NCBI RefSeq assembly: GCF_001677475.2
Contig: NZ_CP015229.1
Source: Escherichia coli
Lineage (GTDB): Bacteria; Pseudomonadota; Gammaproteobacteria; Enterobacterales; Enterobacteriaceae
Length of the DNA stretch: 64,000 nt
Reading direction: 5' to 3' (one strand)
A model generated the notes under the pieces. It saw only the letters and a list, made by a program, of their open reading frames with translations. It was not told where the DNA came from and did no database searches. Shown here one piece after another: positions 51,414-58,547 of this stretch (position 1 is the stretch's first letter; the number at the start of each line of letters is the position of its first letter). The position numbers and the translations under genes were made by a program.

Positions 51414-52517
51414 TCACGGGTTAGCGGGGAAAATAGCCCCGAGTACCGTCTCCTGGCTTGCGCCAGTGACGGAAGGCAGATTTCCTGGTAATCCCGCAAG
51501 CGTCCGCCAGGCAAGCCAGGCGAAAGCCAATGCTTCCATGTCATCGCCACTAATGCCAACGGCATCGGTGGTGGTGACTTCTGTGCCTGGCAGTAATGCC
51601 GCCAGACGCGCCATGAGTAGCGGATTACGACTTCCTCCACCACATACCATCAATCGTTCGCAGCCACCGCTCAACAAAACTTGTTCAGAAATGGTCACGG
51701 CGGTGAGTTCTGCCAGTGTCGCCTGTACATCTCGGGGATCAACACCCGGAAAATGGCGCAAATGGCGCTCCAGCCAACCGTAGTTAAAGTATTCGCGTCC
51801 GGTGCTTTTCGGTGCAGGTTGCGAGAAATACGGGTCGCTAAGCATATTTTGCAGCAGTGGGAGAATGACTTTACCCGCCCGTGCCCACTCGGCATCTTTA
51901 TCGTAAGGTTTACCGGCCTGACGCCAGATCCAGGCATCCATCAGCATGTTACCAGGGCCGGTATCGTAGCCCCCTACCGGCTGCCCAGGAATGAGCAGTG
52001 ACAGATTGGCGATGCCGCCAATATTGAGCACCATTCGTCGCTCGGTTGGGTGAGCCAGCAGCGCATGATGGAACGCAGGTACCAGCGGTGCGCCTTGTCC
52101 TCCCAAGGCAATATCGCGACGGCGAAAATCACCGACAACCGTAATTCCGGTGCGTGCCACAATTTGATTGTTATCGCCAATCTGTAAAGTGTGTGGTGCC
52201 ACGCCCGTCGGTTCATGCCAGACGGTTTGACCGTGACAGCCGATCGCAACGATATCTCTCGCCTGCAGGTTTTGTTCCTTAAGCAAGGCATTGACCGCAT
52301 CAGCAAAAAGTCGCCCGAGTTGAGTATCAAGCTGTCCAAACTGCGTAAGCTGCTGGCCCTGGCAAATATCCAGTACAGCCTGTTTCAGAGACACCGGGAT
52401 CGGCCAGCTCAAACTTGCCAGCTGTGCGACCCGGTGTTCATCAATTGTCGCCAACACAACATCAACACCATCAAGGCTGGTGCCTGACATAACGCCAATA
52501 AAGCGGCCCGATTTCAT
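51414..52517 (-). CDS. anmK: Anhydro-N-acetylmuramic acid kinase
   Basis: ORF track 367 aa. Confidence 0.9.
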
Positions 52518-52650
52518 AGTTCATCCTTTTTCAATCTGACGTTTGCGCACCACTCAAACATAAACTTTTCGTGAATACCATGCGGAATGACCGATTTTTA
52601 CCGTTGGTAGTAAAACATTATCTTCAAATCAATAATCATCATGAATGTTT

Positions 52651-52667
52651 TGTTTATAATTGGTTGA
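52651..52667 (+). promoter_or_regulatory. PhoP-box-like direct repeat TGTTTA-N5-GGTTGA upstream of slyB
   Basis: Fits (T/G)GTTTA-N5-(T/G)GTTTA at 11/12 positions; slyB is a known PhoP-activated gene. Confidence 0.45.
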
Positions 52668-52790
52668 TCCTACTTTCATTATGATTTGCTCATATTTGGT
52701 AGAACATGTAACCATGGATTCACATATGCCATATACTTTGACCATGAGGGATGCTTGCGTGGCGTTTCATGGTGAACAGGAGATTTTTCA

Positions 52791-53258
52791 ATGATTAAAC
52801 GCGTATTGGTTGTTTCAATGGTAGGTCTGTCTCTTGTCGGTTGTGTTAATAACGACACCCTGTCAGGGGATGTTTATACCGCTTCTGAAGCGAAACAAGT
52901 ACAGAATGTCAGCTATGGCACCATCGTTAACGTACGTCCGGTACAGATTCAGGGCGGTGATGATTCCAACGTTATCGGCGCAATTGGCGGTGCTGTTCTT
53001 GGTGGTTTCCTGGGGAATACTGTTGGTGGCGGAACCGGGCGTTCTCTGGCTACTGCAGCAGGCGCTGTTGCAGGTGGCGTAGCCGGTCAGGGCGTACAGA
53101 GTGCAATGAACAAAACGCAGGGTGTCGAGCTGGAAATTCGTAAAGACGATGGTAATACCATCATGGTGGTACAGAAACAAGGCAACACTCGTTTCTCTCC
53201 GGGCCAACGTGTCGTACTGGCCAGCAATGGCAGTCAGGTGACCGTTTCTCCGCGCTAA
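52791..53258 (+). CDS. slyB: Outer membrane lipoprotein SlyB (glycine-zipper)
   Basis: ORF track 155 aa; lipobox LVGC; Gly-rich segment. Confidence 0.95.
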   Translation: MIKRVLVVSMVGLSLVGCVNNDTLSGDVYTASEAKQVQNVSYGTIVNVRPVQIQGGDDSNVIGAIGGAVLGGFLGNTVGGGTGRSLATAAGAVAGGVAGQGVQSAMNKTQGVELEIRKDDGNTIMVVQKQGNTRFSPGQRVVLASNGSQVTVSPR

Positions 53259-53266
53259 ATAAGTTT

Positions 53267-53294
53267 GCGTGTGGTCAGGTTACTGACCACACGC
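53267..53294. terminator. Hairpin GCGTGTGGTCAG-GTTA-CTGACCACACGC between convergent slyB and slyA
   Basis: 12-bp perfect stem read from sequence. Confidence 0.55.
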
Positions 53295-53304
53295 CCCCTT
53301 CATT

Positions 53305-53745
53305 TCACCCTTTGGCCTGTAACTCAATGATATTATGCTCAAGTTTTGCGATGAGCGTAATCAGTTGTTCCAGTTCCTCTGCGGAGATGCCATGTAAGAT
53401 TTCCGCGCGGGTTTTGTTAATAACAGCTTCCATTTCGCTGATCAGTGGCTCTGCCTTTTCCGTCAGTTTAATACGTTTAGCCCGACGATCGCTGGCACAA
53501 GTTTGACGCGAAATTAACCCTTTTTCTTCCAGTTGGTCCAGAGTACGGACCAGTGATGGCTGCTCGATGCCAATCGCTTTTGCCAGTTGAATTTGCGACT
53601 GGTCTGGAGGTAACTGATGGATATTGTGTAACGTAACCCAATGGGTTTGTGTTAACTCCAGCGGTTTCAGGCGATGGTCTATCAGAGCACGCCATATGCG
53701 CACCAACCGTGCCAGATCAGAACCTAGTGGCGATTCCAATTTCAT
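53305..53745 (-). CDS. slyA: MarR-family transcriptional regulator SlyA
   Basis: ORF track 146 aa; true start may be the TTG at 53737..53739 (144 aa). Confidence 0.9.
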
Positions 53746-53755
53746 CTCCTTATAA

Positions 53756-53767
53756 TTAGCTTGCTAA
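53756..53767 (-). promoter_or_regulatory. SlyA box TTAGCAAGCTAA (exact consensus on minus strand) immediately upstream of slyA start
   Basis: Read from sequence; established SlyA recognition consensus. Confidence 0.6.
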
Positions 53768-53939
53768 GATATTATGCGGCTTTTAGAATAGTGTGCAGCA
53801 ATTGTATTGCTAAAACAAATGTATTGCTGCATTTGGTTACCGTCAGACATATTTTTCAGAAATTGCGCGTAAATTTTTCGCACTTAAAGAATATTTATTA
53901 ATCTAACGCAATATATTCGGTCGTAAAGGAATCTACTTT

Positions 53940-54176
53940 GTGAAGTTTATGCTCAATGCAACAGGATTGCCCTTACAAGATCTGGTGTTCGGTGCGTCCG
54001 TCTATTTTCCTCCGTTTTTCAAAGCCTTCGCGTTTGGATTCGTCATCTGGCTTGTCGTACACCGCCTGCTTCGTGGCTGGATCTACGCCGGTGACATCTG
54101 GCATCCCTTGTTAATGGATTTATCGCTGTTTGCGATTTGCGTTTGCCTTGCTCTGGCAATACTGATTGCGTGGTAA
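53940..54176 (+). CDS. ydhI: Small inner membrane protein (DUF1656), AaeX-like
   Basis: ORF track 78 aa, GTG start. Confidence 0.85.
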
Positions 54177-54178
54177 CT

Positions 54179-55036
54179 ATGTCAATTAAAACAATTAAGT
54201 ATTTCTCAACAATTATTGTAGCGGTAGTTGCGGTTCTTGCCGGATGGTGGCTGTGGAATTATTACATGCAATCTCCGTGGACACGCGACGGGAAAATACG
54301 CGCAGAACAGGTTTCTATCACCCCACAGGTGTCGGGACGTATTGTTGAGCTGAATATAAAAGACAACCAACTGGTTAACGCGGGGGATCTTCTGCTCACG
54401 ATCGATAAAACGCCCTTTCAGATCACCGAGCTGAATGCACAGGCTCAGCTGGCGAAAGCGCAATCTGACCTCGCAAAAGCCAATAACGAAGCGAATCGTC
54501 GTCGTCATCTCTCACAAAATTTTATTTCTGCCGAAGAACTCGATACCGCTAACCTCAATGTTAAAGCGATGCAGGCCAGTGTTGATGCCGCACAGGCGAC
54601 GCTGAAACAGGCACAATGGCAACTGGCGCAAACGGAAATTCGCGCCCCGGTGAGCGGATGGGTGACTAATCTTACTACCCGCATCGGCGATTACGCTGAC
54701 ACCGGGAAACCGCTGTTTGCTCTTGTCGATAGCCACTCGTTTTACGTCATTGGTTATTTTGAAGAAACCAAGTTGCGCCATATCCGCGAAGGTGCACCAG
54801 CACAAATAACCCTCTATAGTGATAACAAAACGTTACAGGGTCACGTTTCCAGTATCGGTCGGGCGATTTATGATCAGAGCGTTGAAAGTGACTCAAGCCT
54901 TATTCCGGATGTGAAACCTAACGTCCCCTGGGTTCGCCTCGCCCAACGCGTTCCGGTCCGCTTTGCGCTGGATAAAGTCCCAGGCGATGTCACGCTGGTG
55001 TCGGGCACCACCTGTAGCATTGCCGTAGGTCAATAA
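54179..55036 (+). CDS. ydhJ: HlyD-family membrane fusion protein (AaeA-like)
   Basis: ORF track 54137..55036; likely start MSIKTIKYF (285 aa). Confidence 0.85.
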
Positions 55037-57048
55037 TGAACGCATCGTCATGGTCCTTGCGCAATTTGCCCTGGTTCAGGGCCACGCTGGCGCAATGGCG
55101 TTATGCGTTACGCAATACCATTGCCATGTGTCTGGCGCTGACGGTTGCCTATTATTTGAATCTGGATGAGCCCTATTGGGCGATGACCTCGGCTGCAGTG
55201 GTTAGCTTTCCCACCGTTGGCGGTGTCATCAGCAAAAGCCTCGGACGCATCGCTGGCAGTTTACTGGGAGCCATAGCAGCACTGATTCTTGCCGGGCATA
55301 CGCTCAATGAGCCATGGTTTTTTCTATTGAGCATGTCGGCGTGGCTTGGCTTTTGTACCTGGGCCTGTGCGCACTTCACGAATAACGTCGCGTATGCATT
55401 TCAACTGGCGGGCTACACGGCTGCCATCATCGCCTTTCCGATGGTTAATATTACTGAGGCCAGCCAGCTGTGGGATATCGCTCAGGCGCGCGTTTGCGAG
55501 GTGATAGTCGGTATTTTGTGCGGCGGCATGATGATGATGATCCTGCCGAGCAGTTCCGATGCTACAGCCCTTTTAACCGCATTGAAAAACATGCACGCCC
55601 GATTACTGGAACATGCCAGTTTACTCTGGCAGCCTGAAACAACCGATGCCATTCGTGCAGCACATGAGGGGGTGATTGGGCAGATACTGACCATGAATTT
55701 GCTGCGTATCCAGGCTTTCTGGAGCCACTATCGTTTTCGCCAGCAAAACGCGCGCCTTAATGCGCTACTCCACCAGCAATTACGTATGACCAGTGTCATC
55801 TCCAGCCTGCGACGTATGTTGCTCAACTGGCCCTCACCGCCAGGTGCAACACGAGAAATTCTCGAACAGTTGCTGACGGCGCTCGCCAGTTCGCAAACAG
55901 ATGTTTACACCGTCGCACGTATTATCGCCCCGCTACGCCCGACCAACGTCGCCGACTACCGGCACGTCGCCTTCTGGCAGCGACTACGTTATTTTTGCCG
56001 CCTTTATCTGCAAAGTAGTCAGGAATTACATCGTCTGCAAAGCGGTGTGGATGATCATACCAGACTCCCACGGACATCCGGCCTGGCTCGTCATACCGAT
56101 AACGCCGAAGCTATGTGGAGCGGACTGCGTACATTTTGTACGTTGATGATGATTGGCACATGGAGTATTGCTTCGCAATGGGATGCCGGTGCCAATGCAT
56201 TAACGCTGGCAGCAATTAGCTGCGTACTCTACTCCGCCGTCGCAGCTCCATTTAAGTCGTTGTCACTGCTGATGCGCACGCTGGTGTTACTTTCGCTATT
56301 CAGCTTTGTGGTCAAATTTGGCCTGATGGTCCAGATTACCGATCTGTGGCAATTTTTACTGTTTCTCTTTCCACTGCTTGCGACAATGCAGCTTCTTAAA
56401 TTGCAGATGCCCAAATTTGCCGCATTGTGGGGGCAACTGATTGTTTTTATGGGTTCGTTTATCGCTGTCACTAATCCCCCGATGTATGATTTTGCTGATT
56501 TTCTTAACGATAATCTGGCAAAAATCGTTGGCGTTGCGCTGGCGTGGTTAGCGTTCGCCATTCTGCGTCCAGGATCGGATGCTCGTAAAAGTCGCCGTCA
56601 TATTCGCGCGCTGCGCCGGGATTTTGTCGATCAACTAAGCCGCCATCCATCACTGAGTGAAAGCGAATTTGAATCACTCACTTATCATCACGTCAGTCAG
56701 TTGAGTAACAGCCAGGATGCGCTGGCTCGCCGTTGGTTATTACGCTGGGGTGTAGTGCTGCTGAACTGTTCTCATGTTGTCTGGCAATTGCGCGACTGGG
56801 AATCGCGTTCCGATCCGTTATCGCGAGTACGGGATAACTGTATTTCACTGTTGCGCGGAGTGATGAGTGAGCGTGGCGTTCAGCAAAAATCACTGGCGGC
56901 CACACTTGAAGAATTACAGCGAATTTGCGACAGCCTTGCCCGTCATCATCAACCTGCCGCCCGTGAGCTGGCGGCAATTGTCTGGCGGCTGTACTGCTCG
57001 CTTTCGCAACTTGAGCAAGCACAACCGCAAGGTACGCTGGCCTCTTAA
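55036..57048 (+). CDS. ydhK: Fusaric-acid-resistance/AaeB-like (ArAE family) efflux permease
   Basis: ORF track 670 aa. Confidence 0.85.
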
Positions 57049-57570
57049 TTACTTAATTACACCACAGGCATAGCGTTCACCGCCACCGCCCAGCGGTTTA
57101 GGTTGATCGGACATATTATCGCCGCCAACGTGGACCATCAGCGCTTTGTCTTTGATTTCATCCAGTGATTTCAGACGAGGCGCGATGACGGCATCGGTAG
57201 CTTTGCCGTCATTATTGACGACCAGTGCAGGCAGATCGCCTAAATGCCCGGCACCTTCTGGCCCTTCATGTTTACCGGTATTTTGTGGATCAAGATGCCC
57301 GCCTGCGGATTCCGCGGCGCTGGCTTTGCCATCTTTGGTGGCTGGCTGGCAGCTTCCTTTGGCATGAATATGGAAGCCATGTTCACCGGGGGGTAATGCT
57401 TTCAGATCGGGCGAAAACTCCAGACCTTTATCGGTTTCAGTAATGGTGACGCTACCAATTGACTGCCCAACCCCTTGCGACGTGACGAGGTTCATCTCGA
57501 CTTTTTCACTGGCAGCTTGTGCGCCGGTCGCAACAACCAGCGCCAGAATGGCCAGACTAAAACGTTTCAT
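57049..57570 (-). CDS. sodC: Periplasmic Cu,Zn superoxide dismutase
   Basis: ORF track 57049..57621; start likely MKRFSLAILALVVATGAQA (173 aa); His-rich Cu/Zn ligand motifs. Confidence 0.95.
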   Translation of the reverse strand: MKRFSLAILALVVATGAQAASEKVEMNLVTSQGVGQSIGSVTITETDKGLEFSPDLKALPPGEHGFHIHAKGSCQPATKDGKASAAESAGGHLDPQNTGKHEGPEGAGHLGDLPALVVNNDGKATDAVIAPRLKSLDEIKDKALMVHVGGDNMSDQPKPLGGGGERYACGVIK

Positions 57571-57650
57571 AGGACCTCCGTTCATTGTGCATTCCTGAAT
57601 AAGTGTAAACCAGTGACACATTTTTGAACGGCGGCTATTCCTAAAAGTGC

Positions 57651-58547
57651 TTACGGTACGTCGTAACCCAGTGCCGCTTTACGGATACGGAACCATTGTT
57701 GACGGGTCATTTTCAGTGTTTCAGCTTCGACAGCTGCCCGTACGCGCTCAATTTTACCTGAGCCGATAATTGGCAGCGGCTGCGACGGTAAACGTAATAC
57801 CCAGGCGTAAACCACCTGTTCAATCGAGCCCGCGTTTAACTCCTCCGCCACCACAGCCAGTTCATCACGCAGCGGCTGGAAATAATCATCATTAAACAGA
57901 CGACCACCACCAAGGCAGGACCACGCCATCGGACGAACACGCAGTTGTTGCAGTTGGTCGAGCGTGCCATCCAGCAGTAACGGCTGATGCACCGGGGATA
58001 TTTCCACCTGATTAGTGGCAAGGGTAAACGGCAGGCGTGATTGCAACAGGGCAAATTGCGCGGGCGTGAAGTTGGATACGCCAAAATGGCGCACTTTGCC
58101 GCTCTGATGCAGATGTTTAAACGCGTCCGCCACTTCATCGGCATCCATTAACGGGTCTGGTCGGTGGATTAACAGCAGATCGAGATGATCGGTCGCGAGA
58201 TTAATTAGCGACTGTTCGGCGCTCTTAATGATGTGATCGCGGTCAGTGATGTAATGACCAATGACGTTTTCTTCACGCGCGGTCGTCGCGATACCGCATT
58301 TACTGACGATTTCCATCCGTTCACGCAGGTGAGGAGCCAGTTTCAGCGCCTCGCCAAACGCCGCTTCGCACTGATAGCCACCATAAATATCAGCATGGTC
58401 CACGGTGGTCACGCCGAGATCCAGATGCTCTTCAATAAAACTGACCAGCTGGCGGGCGGACATATTCCAGTCCATCAATCGCCAGTAGCCCATCACAAAA
58501 CGGGAAAACTCCGGGCCTTGCGGCGCAATAGTAATACGCTGAACCAT
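57651..58547 (-). CDS. ydhF: Aldo/keto reductase family oxidoreductase
   Basis: ORF track 298 aa. Confidence 0.85.
   Translation of the reverse strand: MVQRITIAPQGPEFSRFVMGYWRLMDWNMSARQLVSFIEEHLDLGVTTVDHADIYGGYQCEAAFGEALKLAPHLRERMEIVSKCGIATTAREENVIGHYITDRDHIIKSAEQSLINLATDHLDLLLIHRPDPLMDADEVADAFKHLHQSGKVRHFGVSNFTPAQFALLQSRLPFTLATNQVEISPVHQPLLLDGTLDQLQQLRVRPMAWSCLGGGRLFNDDYFQPLRDELAVVAEELNAGSIEQVVYAWVLRLPSQPLPIIGSGKIERVRAAVEAETLKMTRQQWFRIRKAALGYDVP

Follow-up and report, generated by a model that had tools for sequence, protein, structure and literature searches.

The slyA-divergent ydhIJK operon of Escherichia coli encodes a conserved FUSC/ArAE-type system that probably exports aromatic carboxylates

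Among described systems, AaeXAB (E. coli yhcRQP, TC 2.A.85) contains the best NCBIfam match of each YdhIJK protein, namely the corresponding Aae subunit. It has the same order of genes, first for a DUF1656 protein, then for a short adaptor with TM anchor and last for a FUSC permease. Like YdhIJK it belongs to the 80-residue hairpin class and its operon carries no outer-membrane factor gene; a standard review writes this paralogue as 'AaeAB-?' with the exit partner left blank (PMC8277102). In contrast, AaeXAB depends on the LysR-type activator AaeR, ydhIJK on a MarR repressor and sigma-E, and the substrates of AaeXAB are known, unlike the natural substrate of YdhIJK. A previous sequence-only reading of the locus had termed the module AaeXAB-like, which is borne out by the best matches. 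The scores of YdhI, YdhJ and YdhK for the equivalogs NF008615, NF007850 and NF007916 are 21 vs 82, 241 vs 400 and 121 vs 870 bits, respectively. Since all three are far below the equivalog cut-offs, YdhIJK are, judged by sequence, paralogues and not orthologues of AaeXAB. The reported identity is 34% for the A and 21% for the B subunit (PMC12506092).

In MdtNOP, FusABCDE and FuaABC, too, the inner-membrane component belongs to the FUSC family and is paired with an adaptor of the HlyD type. Fus and Fua accept fusaric acid as a substrate, and Salmonella YdhIJK confers a protection phenotype against it. Unlike YdhIJK, these systems have their own NodT/OEP outer-membrane factor, i.e. MdtP, FusA and FuaC (PMC3517613 and annotation). 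Moreover, the gene in front of mdtNOP is ytcA, which encodes a lipoprotein, instead of a DUF1656 gene, MdtN has a long, EmrA-like hairpin (133 residues vs 80 in YdhJ), and FuaR is an AraC-type regulator, unlike SlyA. FuaABC is CCCP-sensitive (PMC3517613).

EmrAB-TolC (PDB 8zar, 8zal) resembles YdhIJK in its adaptor. EmrA and YdhJ are each anchored by an N-terminal TM segment and devoid of a membrane-proximal domain, and their respective inner-membrane partners have no large periplasmic domain. A MarR-family regulator gene adjoins either operon (mprA in case of emrAB). However, EmrB is an MFS and not a FUSC transporter, the EmrA hairpin comprises 127 residues and there is no DUF1656 subunit. 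The plant ALMT/QUAC channels (AtALMT1, AtALMT9, GmALMT12) and the mycobacterial FUSC protein Rv2571c are single-module homodimers, in contrast to the covalent pseudo-dimer predicted for YdhK. The partners of YdhK are an adaptor and a DUF1656 subunit, whereas ALMT-type channels have neither, and a glutamate next to the pore arginine (Glu155 in YdhK) is found in most FUSC proteins but not in ALMTs.

The window, i.e. the whole 64-kb stretch of E. coli DNA that was analysed, contains the following genes in this region:

53305..53739, minus strand: slyA, MarR-family regulator, divergent from ydhI
53940..54176, plus strand: ydhI, GTG start, 78 aa, DUF1656/AaeX family
54179..55036, plus strand: ydhJ, 285 aa, inner-membrane-anchored membrane-fusion (periplasmic adaptor) protein
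55036..57048, plus strand: ydhK, 670 aa, FUSC/ArAE (TC 2.A.85) inner-membrane transporter
57049..57570, minus strand: sodC, convergent neighbour outside the operon, from annotation

Three genes with overlapping or abutting frames had been proposed for 53940-57048, divergent from slyA. Plus-strand open reading frames lie exactly there, separated by 2 nt (ydhI/ydhJ) or overlapping by 1 nt (ydhJ/ydhK, TAATG), and slyA is located on the minus strand 200 bp upstream of ydhI. The three genes are translationally coupled. Their boundaries coincide with the RefSeq E. coli annotation. Of 5426 complete E. coli genomes, 5425 contain the locus, and all three genes are intact in each of 80 further Enterobacteriaceae species. 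In comparison to E. albertii dN/dS is 0.05-0.07 per gene, even for the 78 codons of ydhI (0.07). YdhI, YdhJ and YdhK differ from K-12 by 0, 1 and 6 residues, whereby 37 nucleotide differences in ydhK account for only the 6 changes. Presence, intactness, low dN/dS and near-identity to K-12 together indicate that ydhIJK are real genes and not chance open reading frames. slyA adjoins ydhIJK in 79 of the 80 orthologous loci. At the other end, the stop codons of ydhK and sodC abut with a spacer of 0 nt, while in other genera the coding regions overlap by 8-25 nt.

A search of genomes with an alignment of closer homologues returned Enterobacteriaceae orthologues only, and the homologue search with YdhJ only near-identical orthologues. 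The contexts of more distant FUSC genes were therefore taken from exact-protein look-ups, for which 9 of 10 proteins were on record. No RNA family was found by an Rfam scan of 52500-58000 (E up to 1), and no defence system by PADLOC. The terminator scan gave no candidate above shuffled expectation and none 3' of ydhK.

The proposed set of a small membrane protein, an HlyD-type adaptor and an AaeB-like permease is supported by the domain matches of all three products. YdhI matches Pfam DUF1656 (PF07869) with an E-value of 1.8e-14 and contains two hydrophobic segments as judged by eye. Its orthologues have a GTG start in 79/80 and 78 codons in 78/80 cases. P24 and the motif W54-H55-P56 are common to YdhI, AaeX and distant DUF1656 proteins; within the DUF1656 sequences both prolines are invariant, and W54 and H55 occur in at least 90%. 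The PF07869 match, the conserved proline in TM1 and the WHP motif thus fit the small subunit of the DUF1656/AaeX type. DUF1656 genes occur next to those for FUSC proteins and adaptors, the order of the genes varying. YdhI may represent an obligatory small membrane subunit, as suggested by this co-occurrence and by DUF1656-pump co-fitness from the literature.

YdhK matches the FUSC profile PF04632 over nearly its full length (positions 1-658 of 660; E 9e-139, 464 bits vs a cut-off of 30.9). The helix map of the AF2 model divides into two modules that both comprise six TM helices plus a helical domain in the cytosol. The two halves of the protein are homologous according to HHalign (probability 96.4%, E 1.3e-9). 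Plant ALMT anion channels are the sole match of the confident YdhK model among solved structures, and the family profile also finds ALMT9 by sequence (E 2e-8). To our knowledge, there is no solved structure of a bacterial FUSC member. YdhK hence shows the full-length profile match, the internal duplication and the ALMT-like fold with pore arginines on TM3 and TM6 that characterize the FUSC/ArAE family, and is, according to the model, a covalent, asymmetric ALMT-like pseudo-dimer.

The asymmetry concerns the pore. K67, R71 and R152 of YdhK align with the ALMT lysine, R80 and R165 (AtALMT1 numbering), through which these plant channels bind their organic anion. Among 91 family members K67, R71 and R152 are found in 89, 90 and 91 sequences, respectively, while the equivalents in the C-terminal half are degenerate. 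Conservation of the Lys/Arg cluster in the first module only suggests a single carboxylate site in the central pore. The cluster provides concrete residues for mutation. E155 is located one helical turn past R152. It was set aside as a universal proton-coupling residue because only 67/91 family members carry it; given this frequency and its absence from ALMTs, proton coupling may still apply.

YdhJ was identified as an adaptor by HlyD/CusB-type domains in Pfam (E ~1e-17) as well as by NCBIfam adaptor matches. The AF2 model (pLDDT 82.9) has its TM helix at residues 3-31, two hairpin helices at 78-109 and 118-150, a lipoyl domain and a beta-barrel extending to the C-terminus. A membrane-proximal domain is missing as in EmrA. 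Foldseek yields EmrA of EmrAB-TolC as the best structural match (8zar, E 2e-21), and EmrA, AcrA, MacA and MexA are all matched with probability 1.0. With lipoyl, alpha-hairpin and beta-barrel domains the protein has the full set of a periplasmic adaptor. At the hairpin tip all of 42 sequences have R107, L111 and S117 (R-x3-L-x5-S). The aligned AcrA residues are R128, L132 and S139, whereby the loop of YdhJ is one residue shorter. The motif also aligns with MacA and MdtN and is kept in AaeA. In AcrA and MacA it mediates tip-to-tip docking with the outer-membrane factor.

The absence of a dedicated outer-membrane partner, which had been noticed in the sequence, extends to the family. No outer-membrane factor gene (MdtP-like) occurs within 7 kb in any of the 80 orthologous loci, and none is annotated in the part of K-12 that matches positions ~1-60,000 of the window, collinearity assumed. 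Of a tripartite system, ydhIJK therefore lacks the dedicated factor gene in or beside the operon. Nor does such a gene occur at the four distant FUSC loci (including L085, L086 and L088) whose flanking DNA was long enough. However, in three other distant FUSC operons (L093, L095 and L096) the gene for an adaptor with 80-residue hairpin is accompanied by one for an outer-membrane factor of the OEP family. No factor gene in 80 of 80 species, combined with three distant short-adaptor operons that have one, makes a borrowed channel likely, by analogy probably TolC.

Hairpin length was considered separately. It amounts to 80 residues in YdhJ and AaeA, 127 in EmrA and 133 in MdtN; AcrA is similar to YdhJ. 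YdhJ and AaeA have neither a membrane-proximal domain nor a periplasmic transporter domain to work with, and a short hairpin would be expected in a system without outer-membrane factor. The idea that the YdhJ hairpin is too short for such a factor was rejected because the adaptors of L093, L095 and L096 are of equal length beside an OEP-family factor. Orthologous hairpins of YdhJ vary by whole heptads, resulting in 80, 94 or 108 residues.

SlyA is a regulator central to enterobacterial virulence, and ydhIJK is its ancestral target. The slyA product of the window scores 277 bits with the NCBIfam SlyA equivalog (cut-off 120) and does not differ from K-12 SlyA. The following elements are located between slyA and ydhI:

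53740..53939, no strand: slyA-ydhI control region, 200 bp, identical to K-12 (100%)
53756..53767, no strand: exact palindromic SlyA consensus box TTAGCTTGCTAA (the reverse complement of TTAGCAAGCTAA), sole zero-mismatch match in the 64-kb window
53761..53789, plus strand: putative sigma-70-like promoter toward ydhI, TTGCTA-17-TAGAAT, 9/12 in a consensus scan
53802..53813, no strand: SlyA-like box TTGTATTGCTAA, 9/12 match
53880..53906, plus strand: sigma-E-like promoter GCACTT-N16-TCTAA, 34 nt upstream of the ydhI start
53895-53906, no strand: third SlyA-like box, 9/12, overlapping the sigma-E-like promoter
53925..53930, plus strand: ydhI ribosome-binding site AAAGGA, 9 nt 5' of the GTG, read from the sequence

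With up to three mismatches, 3 SlyA-like sites are found in the 200-bp region compared to 0.12 sites per 200 bp as background over the window. The position of the exact box, at a distance of 17 nt from the start of slyA, is shared by the window and 79 of 80 species. The predicted -35 hexamer lies inside this box and the putative sigma-70-like promoter within a conserved block. The slyA-proximal half of the region is >95% conserved across the 80 species. The ydhI-proximal half is unalignable outside Escherichia, with the ribosome-binding site being the only element there that is conserved across genera. A divergent MarR-family gene and operator-like sites in the common intergenic region correspond to the pattern of MarR-type control.

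Control by SlyA, so far suggested as plausible from the gene arrangement, has in fact been demonstrated. In Salmonella, SlyA represses ydhI ~19-fold in vitro and salicylate relieves the repression (PMC6401476); repression of ydhIJK is also seen by RNA-seq (PMC12506092). In Klebsiella, loss of the slyA orthologue kvrA increases YdhJ 45- to >100-fold (bioRxiv 10.1101/845925). E. coli SlyA binds the slyA-ydhI intergenic fragment in EMSA (PMC5797941). In K-12, SlyA overproduction raised ydhIJK 2.2-fold (PMC5797941), an effect opposite in sign to the repression in Salmonella and Klebsiella.

A further layer, which the sequence-only reading had missed, is sigma-E. ydhIJK is reported to be sigma-E dependent with RNA levels rising ~20-fold after sigma-E induction (PMC7075262), and ydhK was handled as a sigma-E regulon gene whose overexpression reduces viability (PMC2685091). 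The pattern G[AC]ACTT-N16-TCN[AG]A matches once in the window when both strands are scanned, and the motif upstream of ydhI is confined to Escherichia. The main text of PMC1312014 (Rhodius 2006), searched for the ydhI sigma-E promoter, does not mention the gene, so that we infer from sequence that 53880-53906 would correspond to the published promoter of ydhIJK.

Taken together, ydhIJK probably is a conserved enterobacterial FUSC/ArAE-type exporter of aromatic or heteroaromatic carboxylate anions. Besides our own data this relies on published work (PMC6401476, PMC12506092, bioRxiv 10.1101/845925, PMC5797941, PMC7075262, PMC2685091, PMC3517613, bioRxiv 10.1101/072470). Salmonella ydhIJK mutants grow late in fusaric acid while a slyA mutant has a growth advantage there (PMC6401476). 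This shows protection against the compound in Salmonella, in the form of a growth delay and not of a MIC shift or flux measurement. The authors of PMC12506092 believe that fusaric acid is not the physiological substrate of YdhIJK. SlyA would repress the operon via the boxes in the 200-bp region, with repression itself shown in Salmonella and Klebsiella. Salicylate-like aromatic carboxylates would bind SlyA and release the repression, as in Salmonella. In E. coli the sigma-E promoter would add induction by envelope stress, consistent with the literature and the motif found here. YdhK would form the inner-membrane conduit, one polypeptide with two ALMT-like modules, and transport is presumably driven by membrane potential or proton-motive force, which is shown for the relative FuaABC only, by its CCCP sensitivity. 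YdhJ, anchored by one TM helix, is probably an oligomeric periplasmic sleeve like EmrA, and its R-x3-L-x5-S tip would dock an outer-membrane factor, most likely shared TolC.

Other readings concern substrate, route and purpose of transport. YdhIJK may act as a metabolic relief valve in SlyA-ligand homeostasis, exporting an endogenous aromatic inhibitor of SlyA in a feedback loop with xenobiotic resistance being incidental. This reading differs from the exporter described above in the substrate only. We consider it a real possibility, if not the expected one. Export of an endogenous compound is held likelier as the primary function, efflux (tolC) mutants lose SlyA activity, and 4-hydroxybenzoate and related acids leave the cell via the paralogue AaeAB (PMC12506092 and citation therein). 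Moreover, an exporter of alpha-ketoglutarate is described among the mycobacterial FUSC-domain proteins (bioRxiv 10.64898/2026.03.10.710584), and a UPEC transposon screen in the bloodstream scored ydhK as a fitness gene (PMC3855560). However, no endogenous substrate has been named to date, and repeated loss of ydhIJK with slyA kept (PMC6401476) implies a SlyA function independent of the operon. A stress-related purpose, in which the E. coli operon would mainly serve the sigma-E response, e.g. by exporting a compound accumulating upon damage, with vestigial SlyA control, appears highly improbable. The ~20-fold induction (PMC7075262), the viability loss of the sigma-E regulon gene ydhK upon overexpression (PMC2685091) and the unique motif at 53880-53906 fit to it, but this motif is restricted to Escherichia as opposed to a family-wide operon and SlyA box, the searched literature holds no envelope phenotype of ydhIJK mutants, and toxicity of overexpression is common among membrane proteins.

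Concerning the route, transport might end in the periplasm, with YdhJ as a collar and AcrAB-TolC or porins completing the exit instead of an own outer-membrane channel. The missing factor genes in 80 species and at four distant FUSC loci (including L085, L086 and L088), the blank in the AaeAB system (PMC8277102) and the hairpin drift between 80, 94 and 108 residues, odd for a fixed docking geometry, are in line with this. Nevertheless it is unlikely considering the R/L/S tip invariant across YdhJ orthologues, AaeA and MdtN, the 80-residue hairpins in the OEP-factor operons L093, L095 and L096, and EmrA, the closest solved homologue, which works with TolC. As to the mode of transport, YdhK and other adaptor-linked FUSC proteins could be ALMT-type anion channels or uniporters driven by membrane potential and not proton antiporters, which we regard as rather doubtful. 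The first module of YdhK may then keep one Lys/Arg carboxylate site while the second serves as gate or scaffold. Our evidence and the Rv2571c preprint allow such a channel but do not establish it. ALMTs being channels, the label 'pump' may be wrong in detail for the modelled YdhK. If true, an adaptor and an outer-membrane duct would be fed by a channel-like protein in a trans-envelope YdhIJK, a mode of energisation apart from RND, ABC and MFS tripartite pumps.

For the carboxylate exporter as a whole, the finding is already known: annotations of every E. coli genome include the operon, and the SlyA link and the aromatic-acid phenotype are published. As experiments on slyA dependence and aromatic acids have thus largely been reported, ydhIJK is not a new finding. 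New are the ALMT-like fused pseudo-dimer of YdhK with its anion cluster in the first half, the closeness of YdhJ to EmrA and the survey of outer-membrane factors. The description of the role as poorly defined agrees with the literature, since the function is 'to be determined' (PMC12506092, 2025) and YdhK (TC 2.A.85.1.6) is listed as uncharacterised (PMC10971958, 2024). Likewise, in view of how K-12 is annotated over the collinear region (~1-60,000), it is reasonable to rank ydhIJK as the least characterised multi-gene unit. The remaining interest lies in the in vivo substrate, in the outer-membrane channel of FUSC systems without own factor and in the FUSC transport mechanism. What YdhIJK exports in vivo matters, as the operon is the ancestral target of SlyA and ydhK scored as a fitness gene in the UPEC bloodstream screen.

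The sequence-only reading had placed an AaeXAB-like efflux module of three tightly joined genes at 53940-57048. The ORF list gives:

53940-54176, + strand, ydhI, 78 aa, GTG start
54179-55036, + strand, ydhJ, 285 aa counted from the annotated ATG
55036-57048, + strand, ydhK, 670 aa

ydhI and ydhJ are separated by 2 nt, and ydhJ and ydhK overlap by one base (TAATG). RefSeq boundaries are the same as those of the ORFs, and Pfam assigns DUF1656 to YdhI (E 1.8e-14), HlyD/CusB-type adaptor domains to YdhJ and FUSC over the full length to YdhK (E 9e-139), which together confirm the module. Its likeness to AaeXAB holds at the paralogue level. The top NCBIfam matches of YdhI, YdhJ and YdhK are AaeX, AaeA and AaeB, respectively, but the scores (21, 241 and 121 bits) are far under the equivalog cut-offs (82, 400 and 870). 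Hence the module is a paralogue of AaeXAB, not an orthologue.

A 5-kb query around ydhIJK is matched by 5425 of 5426 complete E. coli genomes (~98.8% identity). Compared to K-12 MG1655, YdhI and SlyA show no differences, YdhJ one changed residue and YdhK six (37 nucleotide differences in ydhK). The window thus comes from E. coli or a very close relative. A scan with one genome per species yielded 298 loci, of which the best 80, all Enterobacteriaceae, were analysed. Among these best 80, ydhI, ydhJ and ydhK are intact throughout, slyA adjoins in 79 and slyB is present in 75; the ydhI/ydhJ gap is 2-10 nt, and ydhJ and ydhK overlap by up to 4 nt or lie up to 8 nt apart. dN/dS versus E. albertii is 0.05 for both ydhJ and ydhK. 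The tiny ydhI is under strong purifying selection (dN/dS 0.07) and keeps its non-ATG start, with GTG in 79/80 and exactly 78 codons in 78/80 of the best 80 loci. The sequence-only reading was correct; ydhIJK is a known, annotated and universally conserved operon.

Contig CACSKA010000003.1, titled 'Chryseobacterium sp. 18061' (L079), carries a typical enterobacterial slyB-slyA-ydhIJK-sodC-ydhF locus with 74-89% protein identity to E. coli and is probably mislabelled or contaminated. Fusions of YdhJ and YdhK, with adaptor and FUSC domains in a single chain, occur in public databases as P0002 (845 aa) and P0048 (900 aa, Salmonella enterica); the probable cause is a frameshift or a sequencing error where the ydhJ stop and the ydhK start overlap. 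In E. coli A16 the annotation marks anmK as frameshifted (L001 1414-2518); in the window it is an intact 367-aa ORF at 51414-52517 (369 aa annotated in K-12).

The 200-bp slyA-ydhI spacer (53740-53939) is 100% identical to K-12 MG1655, so K-12 experiments on it apply directly. It contains the following sites:

53756-53767, exact SlyA consensus TTAGCAAGCTAA, the only one in the window
53761-53789, predicted sigma-70-like promoter towards ydhI, its -35 hexamer within the exact SlyA box
53802-53813, SlyA-like site, 9/12
53880-53906, sigma-E-like motif GCACTT-N16-TCTAA, matched nowhere else in the window, both strands considered
53895-53906, SlyA-like site, 9/12 (third box), overlapped by the sigma-E-like motif

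The background of 9/12 sites in the window is 0.12 per 200 bp. In 79/80 species (best 80 of 298 loci) the exact box keeps its position, 17 nt from the start of slyA. Conservation across the 80 species exceeds 95% in the slyA-proximal half of the spacer; the half next to ydhI cannot be aligned outside Escherichia except for the AAAGGA ribosome-binding site, which agrees with the turnover of cis-regulatory sequence reported in PMC6401476. The sigma-E-like motif is likewise confined to Escherichia. Between the convergent slyB and slyA, at 53267-53294, lies a strong hairpin of terminator type (12 pairs, 8 G-C), the sole convincing terminator in the scanned stretch.

Control by SlyA, previously suggested as plausible, is already established, and published work in Salmonella, Klebsiella and E. 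coli covers most of the proposed tests. In Salmonella, SlyA represses ydhI ~19-fold in vitro with relief by salicylate, and its footprint covers a 9/12 box close to the ydhI -35; at 30 ug/ml fusaric acid ydhIJK mutants grow late and slyA mutants better (PMC6401476). Repression in Salmonella was confirmed by RNA-seq (PMC12506092). Disruption of kvrA, the slyA orthologue of Klebsiella pneumoniae, raises YdhJ 45- to over 100-fold (bioRxiv 10.1101/845925). In E. coli K-12 SlyA binds the slyA-ydhI fragment; however, ydhIJK rises 2.2-fold on SlyA overproduction, which conflicts in sign with the repression in Salmonella and Klebsiella (PMC5797941). A second input, sigma-E, had been overlooked: ydhIJK is counted among the operons of the sigma-E regulon, with RNA ~20-fold up after sigma-E induction (PMC7075262). 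Overexpression of ydhK lowers viability (PMC2685091).

Downstream, ydhK (+) meets the convergent sodC (-) stop to stop (57046-57051; spacer 0 nt), and the terminator scan shows no terminator-like hairpin between the two. Upon induction, transcription of ydhIJK would continue into sodC in antisense. In other genera the coding regions overlap by 8, 22 or 25 nt; sodC is not next to ydhK in 14/80 species (best 80 of 298 loci).

The substrate and role of the module are indeed poorly defined: YdhK was entered as uncharacterised in 2024 (PMC10971958), and the role of ydhIJK was 'to be determined' in 2025 (PMC12506092). A transposon screen of UPEC in systemic infection gave ydhK as a candidate fitness gene (PMC3855560), and ydhIJK is elevated in leuS mutants selected with ciprofloxacin (see the review PMC10971285).

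No solved structure of any bacterial FUSC protein was detectable by sequence search. The AlphaFold2 model of YdhK (91-sequence alignment) is confident (pLDDT 92.7, pTM 0.90), and its nine best PDB matches in Foldseek are all plant anion channels, AtALMT1 or AtALMT9. The YdhK family profile also detects ALMT9 by sequence (E 2e-8), and HHalign detects homology between its N and C halves (probability 96.4%, E 1.3e-9 for YdhK). K67, R71 and R152 align with a Lys, the TM3 Arg (R80) and the TM6 Arg (R165) of ALMTs (AtALMT1 numbering), the two arginines being those to which malate coordination in the pore is ascribed (2026 preprint, bioRxiv 10.64898/2026.03.10.710584). K67, R71 and R152 are conserved in 89/91, 90/91 and 91/91 family members; the second-half equivalents are degenerate. 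Based on fold, homologous halves and this first-half cluster, the best description of YdhK is a putative ALMT-like pseudo-dimer, covalent and asymmetric, with one cationic site, which would fit a monocarboxylate substrate. FUSC-ALMT kinship is already implicit in TC family 2.A.85, and the same preprint drew on it explicitly for Rv2571c, a FUSC protein of mycobacteria (bioRxiv 10.64898/2026.03.10.710584). YdhK may conduct as a channel does or couple to protons; Glu155, adjacent to Arg152, occurs in 67/91 members and is absent from ALMTs. That FUSC 'pumps' such as YdhK are channel-type, potential-driven anion exporters is conceivable, though less likely than not.

YdhI, AaeX and distant DUF1656 proteins share an invariant Pro in the first hydrophobic segment and a WHP motif. 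DUF1656 genes are found beside FUSC and adaptor genes in differing orders, and co-fitness of DUF1656 with its pump is reported from a study of transposon fitness (bioRxiv 10.1101/072470). YdhI is very probably an obligatory subunit.

The absence of a dedicated outer-membrane partner held up. An MdtP-like factor gene occurs within 7 kb in none of the 80 orthologous loci (best 80 of 298), nor does the K-12 annotation of the region corresponding to window positions about 1-60,000 contain any such factor. In contrast, the E. coli paralogue mdtNOP has its own, mdtP. A standard review enters a paralogue of YdhIJK as 'AaeAB-?' (PMC8277102). The short YdhJ hairpin was considered as a mark of factor-less systems. 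Counted as residues between the two lipoyl half-motifs, it is 80 in YdhJ and AaeA, 81 in AcrA, 95 in MacA, 127 in EmrA and 133 in MdtN. Three of ten distant FUSC proteins looked up (L093, L095, L096) lie in operons of the type OEP-(MarR)-FUSC-(DUF1656)-adaptor, OEP being the outer-membrane factor family, and their adaptors show the same 80 residues, so this explanation was rejected; the distant loci L085, L086 and L088 are without an OEP gene. The YdhJ model (pLDDT 82.9) comprises a TM helix (3-31) and hairpin helices (78-109 and 118-150), lacks the membrane-proximal domain, and has EmrA of the EmrAB-TolC complex as closest solved structure (E 2e-21). R107, L111 and S117 at the hairpin tip are invariant (n=42 sequences) and align with AcrA R128, L132 and S139. 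YdhJ is thus modelled as an EmrA-like adaptor with a putative outer-membrane-docking tip motif. OEP genes alongside the same hairpin, the R/L/S tip and the EmrA match favour a borrowed outer-membrane channel for YdhIJK, most plausibly TolC.

The YdhJ alpha-hairpin (residues 76-157, window 54404-54649) differs among orthologues by insertion of whole heptads, symmetric in both arms (L047, L052, L068, L074, L079). Orthologues from Escherichia, Salmonella, Citrobacter and Enterobacter have 80 residues, those from Klebsiella and Raoultella 94, and a few from other Enterobacteriaceae 108.

Taken together, operon, boundaries and SlyA control were already known, and the additions of the present analysis are structural: YdhK as a predicted asymmetric pseudo-dimer of ALMT type that keeps one conserved cationic site, and YdhJ as a likely EmrA-like adaptor whose short hairpin class is also found in operons encoding an outer-membrane factor.
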